The notes under the pieces: generated by a model
Database searches by the model: none
Told to the model about the DNA's origin: nothing
Seen by the model: only the letters and a program-made list of their open reading frames with translations
Translations under genes and position numbers: made by a program
Sequence record: PZ544513.1
Reading direction: 5' to 3' (one strand)
DNA length: 39,595 nucleotides
Source of the DNA: a phage
Shown: piece by piece, positions 1 through 39,595 of the stretch
How the letters are laid out: each line of letters begins with the position of its first letter
Numbering within the stretch: the first letter of the stretch is position 1

Positions 1-1731
1 ATGACTGCACGTATGAAGTCAGACTTCGTGTTCTTCCTGTTCGTCCTGTGGAAAGCTCTGTCGCTCCCAGTCCCGACTCGCTGTCAGATTGACATGGCGA
101 AGAAACTATCGGCTGGGGACAACAGGCGCTTCATCCTACAGGCGTTCCGTGGTATAGGGAAGTCCTTCATTACGTGTGCCTTCGTTGTCTGGAAGCTATG
201 GAACAACCCAGACTTGAAGTTCATGATTGTGTCGGCCTCAAAGGAGCGAGCCGATGCTAACTCCATCTTCATCAAGCGAATCATCGACCTCATGCCTCAG
301 CTTCAGGAACTCAAACCTAAGCAGGGACAGCGAGATGCGGTTATTAGCTTCGACGTGGGACCTGCCAAGCCAGACCACTCACCTTCGGTTAAGTCCGTTG
401 GTATCACTGGTCAGTTGACTGGTAGTCGTGCTGACATCCTGATTGCCGATGACGTGGAGGTTCCGAACAACTCAGCGACTCAGGCTGCACGAGACCGTCT
501 ATCAGAGCTTGTGAAAGAGTTCGACGCTATCCTGAAGCCGGGAGGTACGATCATCTATCTGGGTACTCCTCAGAACGAGATGACCCTGTACCGTGAGCTG
601 GAAGGTCGTGGGTACACCACTACTATCTGGCCCGCTCGTTATCCACGCGACAGGAAGGACTGGCAGTCTTACGGCGACCGTCTGGCTCCTATGCTTCAGG
701 CAGAGCTGGAAGAGGACCCTGAGTCCTTCTACTGGCGTCCGACTGATGAAGTACGCTTCGATGATACGGACCTGAAGGAACGTGAGCTGTCCTACGGTAA
801 AGCTGGCTTCGCTCTACAGTTCATGCTTAACCCGAACCTGAGTGATGCCGAGAAGTACCCTCTTAAGCTCCGTGACCTTATCGTAGCCGACTTGGACCCA
901 GCGTCCAGCCCAATGGTCTACCAATGGTTGCCGAACCCTCAGAACAAGCGTGAGGACGTTCCTAACGTTGGACTCATGGGTGACTCGTACCACACGTATC
1001 AGACTGTAGGTTCTGCCTTCAGCTCATACACCCAGAAGATTCTGGTCATTGACCCTAGTGGTCGTGGTAAGGATGAAACTGGATATGCGGTACTGTACCA
1101 GCTCAACGGCTACATCTTCGCTATGGAAGTTGGTGGTATGCGTGGTGGTTATGAAGACTCTACGCTGGAAGCCTTGGCTAAGATTGGTCGTAAGTGGAGG
1201 GTAAACGAATACGTCATTGAGGGTAACTTCGGTGATGGTATGTACCTTGAGCTATTCAAGCCTGTATCGGCCCGTATCCATCCTGCGGCTGTAACTGAAG
1301 TGAAGAGTAAGGGTCAGAAAGAACTACGCATCTGTGACGTTCTGGAGCCTATCATGGGGTCTCACAGACTTATCGTTAACGCTGCTGCTATCGTCCAAGA
1401 CTACCAGACAGCCTCTGACAAGGATGGTGTTCGTAACCCTATCTACTCTCTATTCTATCAGATGACACGTATCTCTCGTGAGCGTGGAGCCTTGGCACAC
1501 GATGACCGACTTGATGCGCTGGCTATCGGTGTACAGTTCTTCGTTGAGTCGATGGCTAAGGATGCCAACAAAGGCGAACGTGAAGTCACTGAGGAATGGC
1601 TGGAGGAACAGATGGAGAACCCACGGAAAGGCTTCGAGTCCATCCACACTGAGTTCTGGGACAATGGGGTCCGGGTAACTCACGATACGGACGACGAGCT
1701 TGGACTAGGGTCATACGTTACGTTCCACTAG
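1..1731 (+). CDS. 19: Large terminase subunit (T7 gp19-like), 5-prime truncated by the window edge; the start lies at 39563..39595
   Basis: 576-aa ORF colinear with recalled T7 gp19 ([30 protein letters not shown] Walker A-like, [26 protein letters not shown]); reading frame is open to window position 1 and continuous with the ORF starting at 39563. Confidence 0.93.
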
Positions 1732-1825
1732 CTGAATGAATAACTATAGGTGAAAGCTGCATGAATAAGCAGTTAGTAACCTATAGTTACTACCAGTCTA
1801 ACATACTGTTTTACAAGGAGTTTGG

Positions 1826-1848
1826 ACTTAACTATCACTATAGGGAAG
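1826..1848 (+). promoter_or_regulatory. Phage RNAP promoter (phi-OR-like) cTTAACTATCACTATAGGGAAG, +1 near 1843
   Basis: Matches the 11-member promoter family of this genome and the T7 promoter core CACTATAGGGAGA; lies downstream of gene 19 near the right genome end, as phi-OR does in T7. Confidence 0.7.
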
Positions 1849-2028
1849 ACCCCCGGTTACTTATAGTATTACTGTAGTGAATATACATATGCAGACTTTA
1901 TGCAAGACCTTAGGAGGCAGACTCCGAGTTCTTACCTAAGGCTTGCACAGATGGAAGGAGGGTGATATTAATCATAATCCCTCCAATACAGATAGTCACC
2001 GACCATAGATACAGGAGGTATGTAGCAT

Positions 2029-2187
2029 ATGGCAAAGACCAAAGCTGTACTTAAAGCTCTGGCGACCAATCGAGCTACATACAGGTTTCTTGCTGCTGTT
2101 CTACTTGCTGCTGGCGTTACTGCTGGAAGTCAGTGGGTCGGGTGGGTCGAGACTCTCGTATGTTCTCTGGTGTCTGAGTGTCGTTAA
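2029..2187 (+). CDS. Small hydrophobic protein (52 aa), gene 19.5-like by position
   Basis: ATG at 2029 preceded by AGGAGG (2013-2018); 52 codons, stop TAA 2185-2187; hydrophobic core LAAVLLAAGVTAG; lies between gene 19 and the terminal repeat; not in the ORF track because under 60 aa. Confidence 0.4.
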   Translation: MAKTKAVLKALATNRATYRFLAAVLLAAGVTAGSQWVGWVETLVCSLVSECR

Positions 2188-2437
2188 CGCCGTAATGGTA
2201 ACAATCAACGAAAGTAAGACCTAAGGTCAGTTCATAGCTGACGCTACTCTACTGACCTTAGCTACTGTAGTCAAGGACTTTAGGTAACACCTTAAAAGAA
2301 GCTCACTTAGGGTCATCCTACTTATTGGTCTATCCTAGTGTCGCCTGACCTACGGTCCTTGACCTACAGTAGCTGGTTCCTAAGGAGGGACGATGAGTTT
2401 TTGACCAAAAGTTTGAGACCACATCTCACAGTTCAAG

Positions 2438-2586
2438 AACATCAAGTCTCCCCCATAGGCCTCTTTCAGTCCAGACCAAAGGCCCTACCCCAGTCTATCA
2501 TAAGGTTGGACCGATGGTCAAGACTTCAGGTCAACGATAGGTTGTGGCTATGGCTTAGGGAAGGACGATAGGTTGGGACTATGGGT
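2438..2586. repeat. Direct terminal repeat, copy 1 (right genome end), 149 bp
   Basis: 2438-2586 is identical to 2588-2736 by direct reading (period 150 bp, one spacer base at 2587); T7-like genomes carry direct terminal repeats of about 150-230 bp. Confidence 0.8.
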
Positions 2587-2587
2587 A

Positions 2588-2736
2588 AACATCAAGTCTC
2601 CCCCATAGGCCTCTTTCAGTCCAGACCAAAGGCCCTACCCCAGTCTATCATAAGGTTGGACCGATGGTCAAGACTTCAGGTCAACGATAGGTTGTGGCTA
2701 TGGCTTAGGGAAGGACGATAGGTTGGGACTATGGGT
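2588..2736. repeat. Direct terminal repeat, copy 2 (left genome end), 149 bp
   Basis: Exact tandem copy of 2438-2586; followed by short-repeat array and host-type promoters as at the T7 left end. Confidence 0.8.
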
Positions 2737-2959
2737 CTGTCTTTGAGTCTCTATCTGTATCAGACCTTGAGTCACTACCTACAGTCTAACTACCTACAGT
2801 CATCGACCATCGGTAATGCCGCTACCTACAGTCATCGACCTACGGTTAATAGACACAAGGATATAGACTTAAGGTCTAATACATGTTAGTCAAAGACTAT
2901 ATCCTCTTAGTCACTATGGGGCCGACGATAGCTTAATCAATATTATTTAAGATTACCTA

Positions 2960-2989
2960 TTGACTACAGGTCCAGACTATGGCTTAATA
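2960..2989 (+). promoter_or_regulatory. Putative host sigma70 early promoter (TTGACT, 17 nt spacer, CTTAAT), weak -10
   Basis: -35 TTGACT at 2960-2965 with an AT-rich upstream tract; located between the terminal repeat and the first early gene, like T7 A1-A3. Confidence 0.25.
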
Positions 2990-3100
2990 GCTTCCGTCAA
3001 CACGACACGGCAACAACCGGATAGTGAAGACGCCGGGTCATCCCGGTTAAGTAGACAGCCTGATAAGTCATACGAACAACAGGCAGATGACAGAAAGTAG

Positions 3101-3130
3101 TTGACAAGATGTACCGACTTAAAGTAGTAT
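3101..3130 (+). promoter_or_regulatory. Putative host sigma70 early promoter (TTGACA, 18 nt spacer, TAGTAT)
   Basis: TTGACA 3101-3106, TAGTAT 3125-3130 followed by GTACCACAT, reminiscent of T7 A2/A3 early promoters; correct position and orientation for early transcription. Confidence 0.45.
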
Positions 3131-3243
3131 GTACCACATCAACACGAAACAACGGTGACGACCAACACTGAAACGGTCTACCTGAAGTCCTCTGACTGAA
3201 GGGAATGCTCTTTAACAATCTGGATAAACTCTTAATGTGCGCC

Positions 3244-3310
3244 GACAGTGATTAACTACAGGGTCTTTGAGTCTACATCTGAAGGCCCTGACTGATAGTC
3301 ACTAGCAACC
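3244..3310 (+). other. Putative RNase III processing hairpin, early-region repeat copy A
   Basis: About 66-nt element CGACAGTGATTAACTACAGGGTC...GGCCCTGACTGATAGTCACTA with imperfect inverted symmetry (AGTGA/TCACT and CAGGG/CCCTG stems with internal loop); three copies, each immediately upstream of an early gene. Confidence 0.5.
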
Positions 3311-3324
3311 TAAGAGGATTCATT

Positions 3325-3603
3325 ATGAGACTGAACAAAGCTACAGCAGAAGCCTTTCGCAAGGAGCTTGAATCAAGATTATTGTGTGGAGTGGCGGAAG
3401 GAGCCGCTCGATATAAAGAGAATGGTCTAACGTTCAAGCGCTTTATGTGGGATTGCTATCACGGAGTGGGCCATAAAAAGTCGCAGGAAATAATCACCAG
3501 CAACAATGCGGAAGTGCAAGTGATAGGAGGATACATGGCTAACGTGAAGGATTCACACATAGAGACAATGCTTAAGAATGCACTTAAAGATGTAGCCTAC
3601 TAG
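3325..3603 (+). CDS. Hypothetical early protein (92 aa), first gene behind the host promoters
   Basis: ORF with RBS AAGAGGA 8 nt upstream of ATG; preceded by repeat copy A; no recognisable motif. Confidence 0.6.
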   Translation: MRLNKATAEAFRKELESRLLCGVAEGAARYKENGLTFKRFMWDCYHGVGHKKSQEIITSNNAEVQVIGGYMANVKDSHIETMLKNALKDVAY

Positions 3604-3658
3604 TGATTAACTACAGGTCGTTAGACTGATAGCGGCCTGACTGATAGTCACTAACACA
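3601..3658 (+). other. Putative RNase III processing hairpin, early-region repeat copy B (diverged)
   Basis: TAGTGATTAACTACAGG...CCTGACTGATAGTCACTAACA shares both flanks with copies A and C; immediately upstream of the ocr homolog. Confidence 0.45.
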
Positions 3659-3683
3659 TAATTAACTTTGAGAGGATATAACT

Positions 3684-4190
3684 ATGGAACGTAATGCTAA
3701 CGCATACTATGAGCTGCTGGCTGCAACCGTTGAGGCATTTATCGAGCGTATTCAGTACGACCACCTGACTCAAGATGATGACTACAGCGATGCGCTGCAT
3801 GAGGTCGTAGACGGTCAGGTTCCACACTATTACCACGAGATTTTTACGGTGATGGCTGCTGATGGTATAGACCACGAGTTCGAAGACTCTGGGCTGATGC
3901 CTGAAACCAAGGACGTAACGCGTATCCTACAAGCTCGCATCTATGAGGCGCTTTATAACGATGTGTCTAATAGCTTGGATGTAGTCTGGTTTGAGGATGA
4001 AGAGGCAGAAGAAGAGGATGAATATTGGGTAGTTGACGCTAAAACAGACGCAATAATTGTGCAAGCTGTAGCTCTTGAGGTCGCTACTGCATGTACCAAG
4101 GTTAACTATGCGGCAGGTCGCCACCTGAAGGTGGAAGACATCAATGATAACGTAGTGTTCGACCCTGCGGCTGAGGACTGCGAGCGATGA
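3684..4190 (+). CDS. ocr: Ocr-like DNA-mimic anti-restriction protein (T7 gp0.3 homolog) with a C-terminal extension of about 50 aa
   Basis: Core [43 protein letters not shown] is near-identical to recalled T7 Ocr ([43 protein letters not shown]); acidic; 168 aa versus 117 aa in T7. Confidence 0.88.
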
Positions 4191-4422: not shown

Positions 4423-4488
4423 CGACAGTGATTAACTACAGGGTCTTTGAGTCTACATCTGAAGGCCCTGACTGATAGCCACTAACAA
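4423..4488 (+). other. Putative RNase III processing hairpin, early-region repeat copy C
   Basis: Identical to copy A except 2 positions over 66 nt; immediately upstream of the ORF at 4503. Confidence 0.5.
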
Positions 4489-4502
4489 CTGAGAGGACAG
4501 AT

Positions 4503-5569: not shown

Positions 5570-8251
5570 ATGAGCGTCATCTCTATTGACAAACACGACT
5601 TCTCTGATGTGTCGAACGCCATTGAGCCGTTTAACCTGCTGGCTGACCACTACGGGCAAGACCTTGCAGTCAAACAGCTTCAGCTTGAGCATGAGGCCTA
5701 CACTGAAGGTGAGCGACGTTTCATCAAGAACCTTGAGCGTCAGACCGAGCGAGGGGAACTGGCAGACAATCAGGTCGCCAAGCCTTTGATGCAGACTCTG
5801 GTTCCTAAGATTGCGCAAGCCGTCAAGGAGTGGCACGAAGGTCCAGACGGGAAGCTGTCAACCTCACGTCCGAGCGTAGCGTTCACCATGTTAAGCACTG
5901 AAGAGAAGGCCGTCAAGGACCGCTCTCTTCGCATCTCCTGCGAGTCTGCTGCGGTTATCATACTGAAGGTCATCCTCTCCAAGCTGGTCAAGCCTGAAGG
6001 TATACCGATTACACCGATGGCCTCCGCGATAGGTCGCACACTTGAGGATGAAATCCGATTCGGTCGCATTCGTGACAAGGAGAAGGAGCACTTCAAGAAG
6101 GCGATAGCTGATAACCTGAACAAGAGAGCCGGGGCATCATACAAGAAAGCCTACATGCAAGCGGTCGAGACATCCATGCTGGAGCAAGGCCAACTAGAAG
6201 ATGCGTGGGGAACTTGGAGTCCGACCGAGGCTGTCCACGTTGGAATCAAGATGCTGGAGATTGTCATACAGTCAACACAACTGGTCGAGCTTAAGCGTTA
6301 CGGTGCTGGCAATGCAGCGGCTGACGTTGAGATGGTCCACCTGTCAGACTTCTGGGTCAAGAAGATGGCACAACGAGGATTCAGCCTTGCGGGTATCGCC
6401 CCAGTCTACCAGCCTTGCGTCGTTCCGCCTAAGCCGTGGACTGGTGTCGTAGGCGGTGGGTATTGGGCCAAAGGTCGAAGACCATTGCCACTGATTCGCT
6501 TAGGGTCTAAGTCTGCGGTAGCACGTTATGAAGACGTATACATGCCTGAAGTCTATGAAGCTGTGAATATCATCCAGAATACACCTTGGAAAGTGAACAA
6601 GAAGGTATTGGACGTGGTGAACAGGGTCGAGAAGCTGAACAACACGCCTATTAATGACATCCCTCAGATGGAACCGCTGAAGCCTGAGGACTATGCTGGT
6701 GAAACCGAGGAGGAACTCAAGGCATGGAAGAAGGCTGCTGCTGGTATCTATCGCCGCGAGAAGGCCAGACAGTCACGCAGATTATCACTGAGCTTTATCG
6801 TTAACCAAGCAAACAAGTTCTCTCAGTTCAAGGCCATCTGGTTCCCGTACAACATGGATTGGCGAGGTCGTGTCTACGCTGTCCCGATGTTCAACCCTCA
6901 GGGTAACGACATGCAGAAGGGGCTCCTGACTCTGGCAGTCGGCAAGCCTATTGGTGCTGACGGTTTCAAATGGCTGAAGGTCCACGGTGCAAACTGTGCG
7001 GGTGTCGATAAAGTCACCTTCGATGAGCGCATCAAGTGGGTGGAAGACAACCACGAAAACATCATGGCTGCTGCTAAGGCACCGATGGATAGCATTGAGT
7101 GGTGGGGCAAGTTAGACTCTCCGTTCTGCTTCCTAGCGTTCTGCTTCGAGTATGCTGGCGTAATGCACCACGGCTTGTCTTACTCCTGCTCGCTGCCGAT
7201 AGCGTTCGATGGGTCCTGCTCTGGGATTCAGCACTTCAGCGCTATGCTTCGCGACCACATCGGTGGACATGCAGTAAACCTGACGCCATCCGGTAAGGTC
7301 CAAGACATCTACCGCATCGTGTCTGACCGCATTGAGGAGGAGCTTAAAGTCCTACTGGTTAACGGTACGGACAACGAGATGGTAACTCACGAGGACAAGA
7401 AAACTGGTGAGATTACCGAGCGTCTCAAGCTGGGGACACGAGAGCTTGCCCGTCAGTGGCTGACCTACGGTATGTCACGAAAGGTCACTAAGCGTTCGGT
7501 CATGACTCTGGCCTACGGGTCGAAAGAGTACGGCTTCGCAGACCAAGTTTACGAGGACATCGTGATGCCAGCGATTGACTCAGGGTCTGGCGCTATGTTC
7601 ACTGAACCAAGCCAAGCATCTCGCTTCATGGCTAAGATGATTTGGGAAGCTGTGAGTGTGACCGTAGTTGCTGCGGTTGACGCGATGAAATGGCTTCAGG
7701 GTGCTGCCAAGCTGCTTGCTGCTGAAGTGAAGGACAAGAAGACTGGAGAAATCCTGAAGCCTTGTCTTCCGGTACACTGGGTCACACCTGATGGTTTCCC
7801 TGTCTGGCAGGAATACCGAAAGAAGGACACCACTCGTCTGAACCTGATGTTCTTAGGGTCATTCAACCTTCAGCCTACCGTCAACAAAGGCACGAAGAAA
7901 GAGCTGGACAAGCACAAGCAGGAGTCAGGCATTAGCCCGAACTTCGTCCACTCACAAGATGGTAGCCACCTCCGCAAGACTGTAGTCCACACGCACCGCA
8001 AATATGGCGTGATGTCATTCGCAGTGATTCACGATAGCTTCGGGACCATCCCGGCTGACGCTGAGTATCTGTTCCGTGGAGTCCGTGAGACGATGGTCGA
8101 GACCTACCGCGACAACGATGTGCTGCTTGACTTCTACGAGCAGTTTGAATACCAGCTTCACGAGAGCCAGAGAGACAAGTTGCCTGAGCTTCCTAAGAAA
8201 GGTAAACTGAATATCGAAGACATCTTGTCTTCAGACTTTGCATTCGCTTAA
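5570..8251 (+). CDS. 1: Single-subunit DNA-directed RNA polymerase (T7 gp1 family)
   Basis: 893 aa; colinear with T7/T3 RNAP throughout (PMFQPCVVPPKPWTG, FPYNMDWRGRVYAVPMFNPQGNDM, AFCFEYAGV.HHGLSY, DGSCSGIQHFSAMLRD, NFVHSQDGSHLRKTVV, IHDSFGTIPADA, C-terminal DFAFA). Confidence 0.98.
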   Translation: MSVISIDKHDFSDVSNAIEPFNLLADHYGQDLAVKQLQLEHEAYTEGERRFIKNLERQTERGELADNQVAKPLMQTLVPKIAQAVKEWHEGPDGKLSTSRPSVAFTMLSTEEKAVKDRSLRISCESAAVIILKVILSKLVKPEGIPITPMASAIGRTLEDEIRFGRIRDKEKEHFKKAIADNLNKRAGASYKKAYMQAVETSMLEQGQLEDAWGTWSPTEAVHVGIKMLEIVIQSTQLVELKRYGAGNAAADVEMVHLSDFWVKKMAQRGFSLAGIAPVYQPCVVPPKPWTGVVGGGYWAKGRRPLPLIRLGSKSAVARYEDVYMPEVYEAVNIIQNTPWKVNKKVLDVVNRVEKLNNTPINDIPQMEPLKPEDYAGETEEELKAWKKAAAGIYRREKARQSRRLSLSFIVNQANKFSQFKAIWFPYNMDWRGRVYAVPMFNPQGNDMQKGLLTLAVGKPIGADGFKWLKVHGANCAGVDKVTFDERIKWVEDNHENIMAAAKAPMDSIEWWGKLDSPFCFLAFCFEYAGVMHHGLSYSCSLPIAFDGSCSGIQHFSAMLRDHIGGHAVNLTPSGKVQDIYRIVSDRIEEELKVLLVNGTDNEMVTHEDKKTGEITERLKLGTRELARQWLTYGMSRKVTKRSVMTLAYGSKEYGFADQVYEDIVMPAIDSGSGAMFTEPSQASRFMAKMIWEAVSVTVVAAVDAMKWLQGAAKLLAAEVKDKKTGEILKPCLPVHWVTPDGFPVWQEYRKKDTTRLNLMFLGSFNLQPTVNKGTKKELDKHKQESGISPNFVHSQDGSHLRKTVVHTHRKYGVMSFAVIHDSFGTIPADAEYLFRGVRETMVETYRDNDVLLDFYEQFEYQLHESQRDKLPELPKKGKLNIEDILSSDFAFA

Positions 8252-9342: not shown

Positions 9343-10430
9343 TGACAACTATCAAAACTAACCCTCACCGCGCTGTAGATTACTCTGAGTCTGGAATTAA
9401 GAAGGCACTGGAAGCAGCCGGGTCTCTGGAAGCTGAAGTGAAGTACGATGGTGTGCGCCTGAACCTCCTGGTACTGCGTGAAGGTGAGACCTACTGGCTT
9501 AGCCGCGAGTCGAAACCTCTACCAGCCTTGGAGTGGATGAACTCTGAGTTAGGTAATGCGTGGACCCAAGCTGACTGGCGATGGTTCCTGCGTCAATCCG
9601 GCTACGAAGGTGTGGGCATGATGATTGATGGCGAGGTCATGGTCAAAGGTGTAGACTTCAACACCTCCTCAGGTCTCATCCGAACGAAGTGGCTCAAGCC
9701 TAACAACGAGGAGTTCGCTGAATACTATTCGCCGGCGACTGGTGGAAAGAAGCTCCCGTTCTGGGGATCCCGGTCACGACTTCAGGTTGTGGTATATGGC
9801 GTTGTCGATATGACAACCATAGCAGACCCGAAAGCAGAAGGTCCTATCCATAGCGTAACCCGCCTGAAGGCTGAAGCTATCGTCCCTCTCCTCCAGAAAT
9901 ACTTCCCGGAAATCGACTGGGTTCTGTCTGAGTCACACACGGTCTATGACCTTGAGTCGCTCAACTCCCTGTACGAACAGAAGCGTCTGGAAGGACATGA
10001 GGGTCTGGTAGTCAAGGACCCACTGGGTAAGTACAAGCGTGGCAAGAAGTCTGGCATGTGGAAAATGAAGCCTGAGGAGACCATCGACGGGACCGTGTGT
10101 GGCCTCGTGTGGGGGACTCCTGGTAAGGCTAACGAAGGTAAGGTCATCGGCTTTGAGGTTCTACTGGAGGATGGCATGGTGGTCAACGCCTGTGGTCTGA
10201 CTGAAGAACAGAAGGACGAGTTTACGGCTAAGGTCAAGGAGGACACGCTTGCTGCGGTTGGCATCTTTGCGCCGTACGGCATTGGTGGTAACGAACCTTG
10301 CTTCGATAACCCATACGAAGGCTGGCAGTGTGAAGTCCTCTTCATGGAGAGGTTCCCTGATGGCTCCCTTCGTCACCCCAGCTTCAAGTGCTGGCGTGGA
10401 ACCGAAGACAACCCAACGGTGAAGTCATGA
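9342..10430 (+). CDS. 1.3: ATP-dependent DNA ligase (T7 gp1.3 homolog)
   Basis: Start MTTIKTNPH aligns with T7 ligase MMNIKTNPF; adenylation motif KYDGVR; EGHEGLVVKDP, KRGKKSGMWKMKPE, SLRHPSF; ATG overlaps the gp1.2 stop (TAATG). Confidence 0.95.
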   Translation: MTTIKTNPHRAVDYSESGIKKALEAAGSLEAEVKYDGVRLNLLVLREGETYWLSRESKPLPALEWMNSELGNAWTQADWRWFLRQSGYEGVGMMIDGEVMVKGVDFNTSSGLIRTKWLKPNNEEFAEYYSPATGGKKLPFWGSRSRLQVVVYGVVDMTTIADPKAEGPIHSVTRLKAEAIVPLLQKYFPEIDWVLSESHTVYDLESLNSLYEQKRLEGHEGLVVKDPLGKYKRGKKSGMWKMKPEETIDGTVCGLVWGTPGKANEGKVIGFEVLLEDGMVVNACGLTEEQKDEFTAKVKEDTLAAVGIFAPYGIGGNEPCFDNPYEGWQCEVLFMERFPDGSLRHPSFKCWRGTEDNPTVKS

Positions 10431-20358: not shown

Positions 20359-20763
20359 ATGCTACCATATCTCAACTCACGCGAAGGTCGCCACATGTGC
20401 GCCTGTCGCCTCTGGGAAGACGGGCAGTATAACTTCAAGTCATTCGAGGACTTCAAGGCTCATACTTACCGTATGGCTGACGAGTTCGAAGGTGAAGAGT
20501 ACACAATCTACGATGTCTCAGGTCAACCAGTAGCGTATCTCTACATGCTGGCTACCGCATCTTGGCACCGACCGACTCCCGGTCTTGACCTTTCAATCGT
20601 CGCTATTCGTAGTGACTCTCAGTCCTCCCGCAAGGTTCTTGAGACTGTCAGGCACATCATAAACGAAGAATGCAAGCGTTGGGGTCTTGGCTGGTATTCT
20701 CGTGTCAAGCATGTTTCCGGGTCGGTAGACATCGTAACAACTAAGGAGATTAACCGTGGGTAA
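20359..20763 (+). CDS. gp7-like protein (gene 7 position)
   Basis: 134 aa ORF at the gene 7 position; identity not verified by motif. Confidence 0.6.
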   Translation: MLPYLNSREGRHMCACRLWEDGQYNFKSFEDFKAHTYRMADEFEGEEYTIYDVSGQPVAYLYMLATASWHRPTPGLDLSIVAIRSDSQSSRKVLETVRHIINEECKRWGLGWYSRVKHVSGSVDIVTTKEINRG

Positions 20764-35697: not shown

Positions 35698-38229
35698 ATG
35701 TCCACGATTACACAATTCCCTTCAGGAAACACTCAGTACAGGATTGAGTTCGACTACCTAGCCAGAACGTTTGTTGTTGTTACGCTGGTGAATAGCTCTA
35801 ACCCTACCCTGAACCGTGTACTGGAAGTTGGTCGAGATTACCGATTCCTTAATCCAACGATGATTGAGATGTTGGTTGACCAATCAGGTTTCGACATAGT
35901 TCGTATTCACCGTCAGACTGGAACTGACTTAGTGGTAGATTTCAGGAATGGCTCAGTGTTGACAGCTAGTGACCTGACCAATTCAGAGCTTCAGGCTATC
36001 CATATTGCAGAAGAAGGTCGAGACCAAACGGTTGACTTAGCGAAGGAATATGCCGATGCTGCTGGTAGCTCTGCTGGCAACGCTAAGGATAGCGAGGACG
36101 AAGCACGCCGAATCGCTGCGAGTATCAGGGAAGCTGGTCTAATTGGCTATATTACCCGTCGCTCCTTCGAGAAAGGCTACAACGTTACAACATGGAGCGA
36201 GGTCCTGCTATGGGAAGAGGATGGTGATTATTACCGCTGGGATGGTACGCTTCCAAAGAACGTTCCTGCTGGTTCAACTCCTGAAACTTCCGGTGGGATT
36301 GGATTAGGTGCGTGGGTTAGTGTTGGTGATGCTGCTTTAAGAAGTCAGATTTCAAACCCGGAAGGGGCAATACTCTACCCGGAATTGCAGATGGCAAGAT
36401 GGCGTGATGAGGGTGATGTTCGAGGCTGGGGTGCTAAAGGGGATGGTGTAACAGATAGTACGGAGAATATAGCTGCTTCACTAAATTCTCAAAAAGCTGT
36501 CGTAGCATCAGAAGGTGTATTCTCTAGTTCTGGTATTAATAGTAATTACTGTAACTTAGACGGTAGAGGTAGTGGCGTGCTAAGTCACCGTTCCAGTACA
36601 GGTAACTACTTAGTATTTAACAATCCACGTACAGGTCGCTTAAGTAATATTACGGTAGAAAGTAATAAGGCGACTGATACAACTCAGGGACATCAGGTAT
36701 CTCTTGCCGGTGGAAGTGATGTTACTGTAAGTGACGTTAACTTCTCAAACGTTAAAGGTACTGGTTTAAGTTTAATCGCATACCCTAATGATGCGCCACC
36801 TGATGGACTTATGATTAAAGGCATTCGAGGTAGCTATTCCGGATATGCTACTAATAAGGTAGCAGGATGCGTACTTGCTGACTCATCAGTTAACTCCCTC
36901 ATAGATAACGTCATTGCTAAGAACTACCCTCAGTTCGGAGCAGTAGAGTTGAAAGGTACAGCCAGTTACAACATAGTAAGTAATGTTATAGGGGCAGATT
37001 GCCAGCATGTAACTTACAACGGCACTGAAGGGCCAATAGCTCCTTCTAATAACCTTATCAAGGGGGTGATGGCTAATAACCCTAAGTATGCAGCGGTTGT
37101 TGCAGGCAAAGGAAGTACGAACTTAATCTCAGACGTGCTCGTAGATTACTCAACTTCTGATGCTAGGCAGGCTCATGGTGTTACCGTAGAAGGGTCTGAT
37201 AACGTCATAAATAATGTGCTTATGTCAGGATGTGATGGTACTAACTCTTTAGGACAAGGGCAGGCTGCTACAATTGCACGCTTTATAGGTACAGCTAATA
37301 ACAACTATGCGTCTGTATTTCCTAGCTACAGTGCTACAGGTGTTATTACTTTCGAATCCGGCTCTACCCGTAACTTCGTAGAGGTAAAGCACCCTGGAAG
37401 GAGGAACGACCTTCTCAGTTCTGCTAGTACTATTGACGGTGCAGCTACTATTGACGGCACTAATAATAGTAACGTAGTGCACGCACCCGCCTTAGGGCAG
37501 TACATAGGTAGTATGTCAGGTAGGTTCGAATGGAGGATTAAGTCCATGTCACTCCCTTCAGGCGTTCTTACTTCTGCTGATAAGTACAGAATGCTTGGTG
37601 ATGGTGCTGTATCATTAGCTTTAGGTGGGGGTACTTCTTCTCAAGTTCGCCTATTTACTTCTGATGGTACTTCTCGGACAGTGTCCCTAACCAACGGTAA
37701 CGTGCGTCTTTCTACCAGTAGCACAGGCTATTTGCAGTTAGGTGCTGATGCAATGACCCCAGATAGTACTGGTACATACTCATTAGGTTCCGCCAGTCGA
37801 GCATGGTCTGGCGGTTTTACTCAAGCAGCATTCACTGTTACCTCAGATGCTCGGTGTAAAACAGAACCTCTTACTATCTCAGATGCCTTACTGGATGCTT
37901 GGTCTGAAGTTGACTTTGTGCAGTTTCAGTATTTGGATCGTGTTGAGGAGAAGGGTGCAGACTCAGCTAGATGGCACTTTGGCATCATAGCTCAGCGAGC
38001 TAAGGAGGCTTTCGAACGTCACGGTATAGATGCACATCGCTATGGCTTCTTATGCTTCGACAGTTGGGATGATGTATACGAGGAAGATGCCAATGGCTCT
38101 CGTAGACTGATTACACCAGCAGGTTCCCGCTACGGTATTCGTTACGAGGAAGTACTGATATTAGAGGCTGCGTTGATGCGGCGGACTATTAAGCGTATGC
38201 AGGAAGCATTAGCTGTTATGTCTAAGTGA
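35698..38229 (+). CDS. 17: Tail fiber / tailspike: T7 gp17-like N-terminal adaptor, central putative beta-helix enzymatic domain, C-terminal S74-type intramolecular chaperone
   Basis: N-terminal 150 aa colinear with T7 gp17 (F.YLAR.FVVVTL, DYRF, LRAYDL / LTASDL, IHIAEE.RD); C-terminus SDARCKTEP...WHFGIIAQRAKEAF resembles recalled chaperone-of-endosialidase autoproteolytic domains; AT-rich middle. Confidence 0.9.
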   Translation: MSTITQFPSGNTQYRIEFDYLARTFVVVTLVNSSNPTLNRVLEVGRDYRFLNPTMIEMLVDQSGFDIVRIHRQTGTDLVVDFRNGSVLTASDLTNSELQAIHIAEEGRDQTVDLAKEYADAAGSSAGNAKDSEDEARRIAASIREAGLIGYITRRSFEKGYNVTTWSEVLLWEEDGDYYRWDGTLPKNVPAGSTPETSGGIGLGAWVSVGDAALRSQISNPEGAILYPELQMARWRDEGDVRGWGAKGDGVTDSTENIAASLNSQKAVVASEGVFSSSGINSNYCNLDGRGSGVLSHRSSTGNYLVFNNPRTGRLSNITVESNKATDTTQGHQVSLAGGSDVTVSDVNFSNVKGTGLSLIAYPNDAPPDGLMIKGIRGSYSGYATNKVAGCVLADSSVNSLIDNVIAKNYPQFGAVELKGTASYNIVSNVIGADCQHVTYNGTEGPIAPSNNLIKGVMANNPKYAAVVAGKGSTNLISDVLVDYSTSDARQAHGVTVEGSDNVINNVLMSGCDGTNSLGQGQAATIARFIGTANNNYASVFPSYSATGVITFESGSTRNFVEVKHPGRRNDLLSSASTIDGAATIDGTNNSNVVHAPALGQYIGSMSGRFEWRIKSMSLPSGVLTSADKYRMLGDGAVSLALGGGTSSQVRLFTSDGTSRTVSLTNGNVRLSTSSTGYLQLGADAMTPDSTGTYSLGSASRAWSGGFTQAAFTVTSDARCKTEPLTISDALLDAWSEVDFVQFQYLDRVEEKGADSARWHFGIIAQRAKEAFERHGIDAHRYGFLCFDSWDDVYEEDANGSRRLITPAGSRYGIRYEEVLILEAALMRRTIKRMQEALAVMSK

Positions 38230-39066: not shown

Positions 39067-39116
39067 AACTAGTGGAGGAGGCTCTACGTGAAATCTGATA
39101 AACCGGGAGGGCAACT

Positions 39117-39566
39117 ATGCTCGAATTTTTAAAGAGAGCGGCTCCGTGGGTACTTGCAGCAGTGATGTTTGCTGGTGGCTACCACACCGCTAACAATAAG
39201 TGGGAGGCTAAGGTCAATGAAGAATACACCTCGAATCTTAAGGCATCGGAAGATACAAGGCTTGCTGTCCAAGCTGAAGTCAACAAAGTGTCCAAACGGT
39301 TTCAGGACGAAATGTCCTCGCTGGAAGGCAGCACTGATAGGATTATTGCTGACCTTCAGTCTGACAATAAGCGGTTGCGCATCCGAGTCAAACCAACGAG
39401 TGGAACCACGCAAAGTGACGGTCGATGCTTCATTGATGGTTACGCCGAACTTGACGAACGAGATGCTAAACGTCTTATCGCCATCGGAGTGAAAGGAGAC
39501 AAGTGGATTAAGGCCCTTCAAGACACTGTGAGAGCCTTACAGCAAGAGAAGGAGGTGACGCATTGA
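39117..39566 (+). CDS. 18.5: i-spanin Rz (T7 gp18.5 homolog)
   Basis: 149 aa; N-terminal transmembrane segment AAPWVLAAVMFAGGY followed by charged coiled-coil-like periplasmic domain; RBS GGGAGGG. Confidence 0.88.
   Translation: MLEFLKRAAPWVLAAVMFAGGYHTANNKWEAKVNEEYTSNLKASEDTRLAVQAEVNKVSKRFQDEMSSLEGSTDRIIADLQSDNKRLRIRVKPTSGTTQSDGRCFIDGYAELDERDAKRLIAIGVKGDKWIKALQDTVRALQQEKEVTH
39214..39492 (+). CDS. Putative o-spanin Rz1 (gp18.7-like) embedded in the +1 frame of Rz; start codon uncertain
   Basis: Embedded frame encodes ...RWKAALIGLLLTFSLTISGC with a lipobox (ISGC) and Cys at about 39376; no canonical start immediately upstream of the signal peptide, so the N-terminus is unresolved. Confidence 0.3.
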   Translation, partial: SMKNTPRILRHRKIQGLLSKLKSTKCPNGFRTKCPRWKAALIGLLLTFSLTISGCASESNQRVEPRKVTVDASLMVTPNLTNEMLNVLSPSE

Positions 39567-39595
39567 GTAAAGACTTAGTGGCGCGTCAGGCGCTA
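39563..39595 (+). CDS. 19: Large terminase subunit (gp19) 5-prime end; continues at window position 1
   Basis: TTG at 39563 preceded by GAAGGAGG (39548-39555); frame continues without stop to the window end and joins the frame of the ORF at 1..1731, giving [21 protein letters not shown]... which aligns with the recalled T7 gp19 N-terminus. Confidence 0.6.
   Translation, partial: MSKDLVARQAL

Follow-up and report, generated by a model that had tools for sequence, protein, structure and literature searches.

Terminal repeats of K1F-like phages

T7-like phages carry a direct terminal repeat (DTR) that lets replicated genomes form concatemers, with one DTR at each junction. Their terminase (gp18/gp19) cuts at conserved ends, and packaging duplicates the repeat, which leaves a copy at both ends of the virion DNA. 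The terminal repeats of the K1F-like phages K1F and EcoDS1 are homologous to the 160-bp terminal repeat of T7. In EcoDS1, the repeat is annotated at positions 1-178 and 39075-39252 of the record.

The locus described here resembles these systems in most respects. Its repeat occupies the same place, after gene 19.5 and before the early host promoters, starts with TCTCACAGTTCAAGAAC... and ends with ...TTTGAGTCTC(T), and shows approximately 93-95% identity to the K1F and EcoDS1 repeats across its length. The difference lies in copy arrangement. Whereas the K1F and EcoDS1 linear records hold one 178-nt copy per end, the present sequence contains an internal 149 nt plus a single A, twice in tandem. 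Most likely, this tandem is a sequence-handling artefact and not a biological structure, and the sections below set out the evidence for this reading together with the alternatives.

Genome identity and organization

The window, that is, the whole stretch of 39,595 nt that was analyzed, is a complete Kayfunavirus genome of a coliphage (K1F-like, a relative of T7; Autographiviridae, Studiervirinae). BLAST matched positions 1700-3700 to 386 phage records, the closest of which were vB_EcoP-PM129 and the 101120B1-2 series at 99% identity or more. Gene order follows that of T7, from the RNA polymerase (5570-8251) through to the tail fibre (35698-38229). The sequence-only reading had described the window as a rotated complete T7-like genome in which gene 19 straddles the boundary, and both statements are borne out. 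When the end of the window is joined to its start, the reading frame of gene 19 (terminase large subunit) runs unbroken through ...LSKDLVARQAL/MTARMKSDF.... Position 1 is an in-frame ATG preceded by 11 codons of the gene, which sit at the end of the window. Both window ends are also adjacent in the relative PP766721 (record positions 20602/20603). The record thus opens at a terL start codon with a seamless end-to-start join.

Around the repeat, the layout is identical to that of EcoDS1: gene 19.5, the repeat region (2424-2752), then the early non-coding region and ocr. Short repeats of the CCTACAG type flank the DTR on both sides (2349-2363 and 2778-2839). Host-promoter-like sites occur within the early non-coding region, for example TTGACA at 3101-3130, and EcoDS1 carries three annotated host RNA polymerase promoters in the equivalent region. 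A scan of positions 1700-3700 for promoters and terminators returned counts close to shuffle expectation. Elsewhere, a promoter-like repeat family with the consensus TAAACTATCACTATAGG(G/A) is present in at least 11 copies, all on the plus strand, as expected for a K1F-type phage. Feature coordinates are collected in Table 1.

Table 1. Features at and around the terminal-repeat locus, and sites of the promoter-like family, in window coordinates
Feature	Position	Strand	Remarks
Gene 19, 3' part (576 codons)	1-1731	+	First 11 codons at about 39563-39595; annotated as terminase large subunit in relatives
Phage-RNA-polymerase promoter CTTAACTATCACTATAGGGAAGA, phiOR counterpart 3' of gene 19	1827-1849	+	Member of the repeat family; corresponds in position to the annotated phiOR of EcoDS1
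Gene 19.5 homologue (52 aa), last gene before the right terminal repeat	2029-2187	+	EcoDS1 19.5 has the same length (159 nt) and position
TCTCACAGTTCAAG, first 14 nt of the canonical terminal repeat (conserved T7-type left terminus)	2424-2437	+	Only ahead of copy 1
Copy 1 of the 149-nt unit (terminal-repeat interior)	2438-2586	+	Best read as part of the right-end copy
Untemplated A between the copies	2587	+	Probable join of the record's two ends; missing in single-copy relatives
Copy 2 of the 149-nt unit	2588-2736	+	Best read as the left-end copy without its first 14 nt
CTGTCTTTGAGTCTCT, last 15-16 nt of the canonical terminal repeat	2737-2752	+	Only behind copy 2
Left-end non-coding early region	2753-3324	+	CCTACAG-type short repeats at 2778, 2793, 2825 and 2839
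Promoter-like sites (approximate starts)	1827, 5479, 8800, 10667, 11632, 14006	+	
Promoter-like sites (approximate starts, continued)	19760, 22581, 23561, 28344, 35630	+	

Structure of the tandem

Tandem Repeats Finder detected only one tandem array in the 39,595 nt, at 2438-2736, with a period of 150, 2.0 copies and 100% matches. The two 149-nt copies had been noted from the letters as identical, and a repeat search and direct string comparison confirmed 100% identity. An exact repeat of this length cannot be a chance match. A2587 is the sole base between the copies, so that the architecture is 149 + A + 149 and not a clean 150-nt tandem. This base differs from G2437, which precedes copy 1, as well as from C2737, which follows copy 2. 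The junction reads GGGT-A-AACATC (...TATGGGTAAACATCAAG... across the join), and the junction 27-mer, GGGACTATGGGTAAACATCAAGTCTCC, served as its signature in collection searches. At the boundaries of the duplication, CAAG/AACA and GGGT/CTGT, no bases are shared, i.e., microhomology is absent. The untemplated A and the missing microhomology together point to abutted sequence ends and argue against replication slippage or unequal recombination.

Boundaries of the canonical terminal repeat

The window was aligned to both ends of K1F (NC_007456) and EcoDS1 (NC_011042). The left ends of both records begin exactly at TCTCACAG, which corresponds to window position 2424, 14 nt upstream of the repeated unit. 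The canonical repeat ends with ...TTTGAGTCTC(T) or ...CTGTCTTTGAGTCTC(T) at window 2751/2752, 15-16 nt downstream of the unit; at their right ends, K1F stops at ...GAGTCTC and EcoDS1 at ...GAGTCTCT. Record starts were compared across Vec13, Peacock and Penshu1 (the latter two PhageTerm-predicted), EcoDS1, two independent K1F sequences, LS2, ECG4, IMEP24, PR_Kaz2018 and KM02. At least 10 independent linear records of Kayfunavirus have the counterpart of window 2588 at record position 15 or 16, and linear records extend 14-17 nt past the equivalent of window 2586. The 149-nt unit therefore lies wholly inside the canonical DTR, 14 nt short of its left end and 15-16 nt short of its right end.

These alignments do not support the earlier proposal that the 149-bp unit is the terminal repeat itself, with physical ends near 2588 and 2586: the proposed ends are 14-16 nt away from those used by the relatives, which fall at 2424 and 2751/2752. 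A literal 149-bp DTR with its left end exactly at 2588 and its right end exactly at 2586 is accordingly very improbable. The two copies do abut as full DTRs would after circular rotation, and the extra A could represent an A-tailing remnant at a true 3' end. However, the window itself retains the conserved termini TCTCACAG and GAGTCTC(T), both outside the unit, and these terminus positions are used by all relatives whose ends were determined or predicted with PhageTerm.

The unit lacks the conserved termini, which delimit the segment 2424-2752 once the 150-nt insertion is removed. This correction gives a 179-nt DTR, a computed circle of 39,445 nt and a predicted virion DNA of 39,624 bp. In the K1F and EcoDS1 records, the repeat is found at both ends; by homology, the virion DNA of this phage would be expected to carry its own repeat at both ends too.

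The original suggestion that the tandem marks joined genome ends fares better than the placement of those ends. The tandem does sit at the terminal-repeat locus, and a right-end and a left-end copy are most likely joined at 2587. A junction of two complete DTRs, which would read ...GAGTCTCT/TCTCACAG..., is nevertheless not present in the window; the abutting copies comprise 149 of the 179 nt and are parted by one A. For a rotation to yield such truncated copies, the extreme ends must already have been missing from the original linear contig, as they are from the linear record PP856269 described below.

Copy number in related genomes

The nearest relatives, 99-100% identical in this region, carry one copy of the repeat. 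Window segments 2400-2586 and 2588-2860 both map to the same single locus in MZ234044 and MZ234022 (10098-10284 for the first segment and 10136-10408 for the second), the second segment with 100% identity in both genomes. Since both segments correspond to one single-copy locus, the window equals its nearest relatives plus a 150-nt insertion. A tandem identical to that of the window occurs in 0 of 229 related records and in no INPHARED record; related records show a single copy at the locus, apart from different tandems in a few. The junction 27-mer likewise gave 0 matches in IMG/VR, JGI metagenome contigs and GTDB genomes.

This distribution bears on the possibility that the duplication is genuine, in which case 150 bp would be duplicated inside the DTR of this phage and each virion end would carry a DTR of approximately 329 bp. 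Such a structure is contained in the sequence as given, and T7-like phages differ in the length of their DTR. The flanks TCTCACAG... and ...GAGTCTCT are moreover intact, as they would be for an internally duplicated DTR collapsed to one copy. Despite these points, a genuine duplication appears distinctly unlikely. It is missing from all 229 related records, including those 99-100% identical in the region, and its junction was not recovered from the three collections searched with the 27-mer. Boundaries without microhomology and with an untemplated junction base are unusual for phage tandem duplications, and recombination-active repeats should not stably maintain a perfect 150-bp tandem. Neither homology at the boundaries nor recurrence in independent isolates was found.

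Tandem repeats in other Kayfunavirus records

Several other records of this genus hold tandems at or near the terminal repeat. OR594182 (SHAK7854) is identical to the window over positions 1-1000 of both sequences (100%) and hence begins at the same base. At 2424-2789 of this record, the entire DTR and 5 further nt are present twice in exact tandem, with a period of 183. OR594184 (SHAK9454; 39,471 bp) shows an equivalent two-copy tandem at 2424-2809, with a period of 193. Both records were deposited as circular and flagged UNVERIFIED, and their DTR starts within 1 nt of the window's coordinate. They resemble the window in being opened at the same terL ATG and in carrying an exact two-copy tandem at the DTR locus from 2424. 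They differ in that the whole DTR and 5 flanking nt are repeated without a foreign base, whereas the window repeats a DTR trimmed by 14 nt and 15-16 nt and includes an extra A.

The annotation of OR594182 is offset from its sequence by 2571 nt, which indicates that the record was rotated after annotation. The annotation origin lies 35 nt upstream of copy 2, not at a DTR boundary. The SHAK genomes derive from MinION rapid-kit reads (NanoFilt headcrop 30) and a Flye assembly; Racon, Medaka and Pilon were used for polishing and Pharokka for annotation (bioRxiv 10.1101/2024.01.12.575291). As a precedent for a tandem created by rotation of a truncated linear contig, these records are inexact: their unit is the full DTR plus 5 nt and is not truncated, and the SHAK tandems may themselves have arisen in another way.

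Another parallel is provided by PP856269 (phage UFJF_EcSW4), a linear record in which both DTR copies are approximately 11 nt short at their outer ends. These outer-truncated copies make it the linear counterpart of the window re-opened at 2587. In contrast to the window, PP856269 is not rotated, and an extra exact 127-nt tandem lies within each of its DTR copies (735-988 and 23-276). Because its size equals the maximum k-mer of SPAdes, this 127-nt tandem probably arose as an artefact of assembly that was then copied to both ends. In PP328844 (phage 216Ecol046PP), an exact 141-nt tandem spans 759-1040, approximately 80 nt downstream of a DTR copy. The maximum k of MEGAHIT is 141, just as that of SPAdes is 127.

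Positions 1-1401 of PP328844 further contain duplicated blocks exactly 500 and 1000 nt apart (1-179/501-679 and 180-401/1180-1401), a pattern that looks like an artefact of terminus-completion software. OM256482 (Providencia phage EPr2) shows a match at nearly identical coordinates to PP328844.

Origin of the duplication

Rotation of a contig with an untrimmed terminal k-mer overlap produces an exact tandem duplication, and the tandems of 127 nt and 141 nt in relatives are of the kind left by circular de Bruijn contigs with such overlaps (SPAdes 127, MEGAHIT 141). These cases raise the possibility that an assembler or polishing step generated the tandem within a collapsed single DTR, so that 2587 would not be a join of the two genome ends. 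The extra 150 nt could then stem from the assembler, from terminal overlap left untrimmed in a 'circular' contig or from local re-assembly by a polisher, in a repeat affected by double read depth, read pile-ups and soft-clipped reads at the physical termini. The match of the other exact tandems to assembler k-mer maxima (PP856269 and PP328844) and the single copy in relatives are consistent with this explanation. In addition, the period coincides exactly with a common Illumina read length (150 nt); it could point to an artefact internal to the assembler and counts against a join of contig ends. We nevertheless regard an origin inside the assembly or polishing as possible but on the unlikely side. 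A k-mer overlap leaves an odd period, equal to k, and a seamless junction, whereas the window has an even period of 150 composed of 149 identical nt and one foreign base; as an exact fit, an untrimmed k-mer overlap is ruled out by these two features. Nor does this explanation predict the near-symmetric placement of the unit within the DTR (14 versus 15-16 nt).

The explanation that we favour, with a probability of roughly 0.6, is that a linear assembly contained both of its end copies in incomplete form, and that its reorientation as a circle brought the two side by side as a tandem. In the virion, a DTR of approximately 179 bp would occur once at each end of the linear DNA and, during replication, once per concatemer junction. 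The source sequence would have been a linear contig that began AACATCAAG..., ended ...TATGGGTA and carried one DTR copy per end. At their outer ends, the left copy may have lost approximately 14 nt and the right copy 15-16 nt, and one spurious terminal base may have been added. For A2587, a terminal consensus error or an A-tail remnant may be conjectured. If this contig was then handled as a circle and opened anew at an ATG within the terminase gene, rotation would bring the right-end copy (2424-2586 and the base A2587) next to the left-end copy (2588-2752), placing the join at 2587.

Near-symmetric losses of 14 and 15-16 nt are what would be expected from loss at two physical ends. Transposase-based libraries and nanopore read ends do not recover sequence right up to the physical end of the DNA, and the truncation may well reflect such end loss in sequencing, or in terminus calling. 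Rotating PP856269 would yield exactly this kind of truncated tandem.

Consequences for the record

The feature is in itself already known, namely an ordinary T7-type DTR seen through a probable sequence-handling artefact. As given, the record nonetheless does not portray the genome correctly. With the extra 150 nt, the circular unit exceeds its proper size of 39,445 bp, the true DTR of approximately 179 nt is masked, and terminus or packaging-type calls would be misled. Spurious small open reading frames also result, for example at 2338-2571 and 2581-2721. Together with OR594182, OR594184, PP856269 and PP328844, which appear to carry artefactual duplications at or beside the DTR locus, the present case is relevant to the mining of phage databases for terminal repeats. 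New biology would arise only if the duplication proved real. A DTR of approximately 329 bp with two perfect 149-bp units would then represent a recent length variant of the T7-type repeat, and would provide a system for studying the influence of repeat length and internal redundancy on concatemer formation and on processing by terminase.

Additional observations

Three small open reading frames traverse the terminal-repeat region (2338-2571, 2581-2721 and 2731-2889) and are almost certainly spurious gene calls. The 46-aa frame at 2581-2721 owes its existence solely to the duplication. Equivalent 'hypothetical proteins' are annotated over the DTR of relatives, for example PM129_012/013.

Immediately 3' of the repeated unit, CTGTCT (2737-2742) coincides with the first six bases of the Nextera transposase adapter CTGTCTCTTATACACATCT. 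The agreement is probably a coincidence, and it could bias read trimming exactly at the unit boundary. As a cause of the tandem, Nextera trimming was rejected: it shortens only reads that end within those 6 nt and cannot alone break an assembly.

Downstream of the DTR, a 67-nt direct repeat with 97% identity occurs at 3243-3309 and 4423-4489, with a third copy of 21 nt at 3636-3656. The 67-nt repeat brackets an open reading frame of 92 aa (3325-3603) and the ocr gene (3684-4190). The 92-aa frame is present in MZ234044 and missing in the close relative MZ234022, which suggests that early-gene modules are gained or lost by recombination at the 67-nt and 21-nt repeats.
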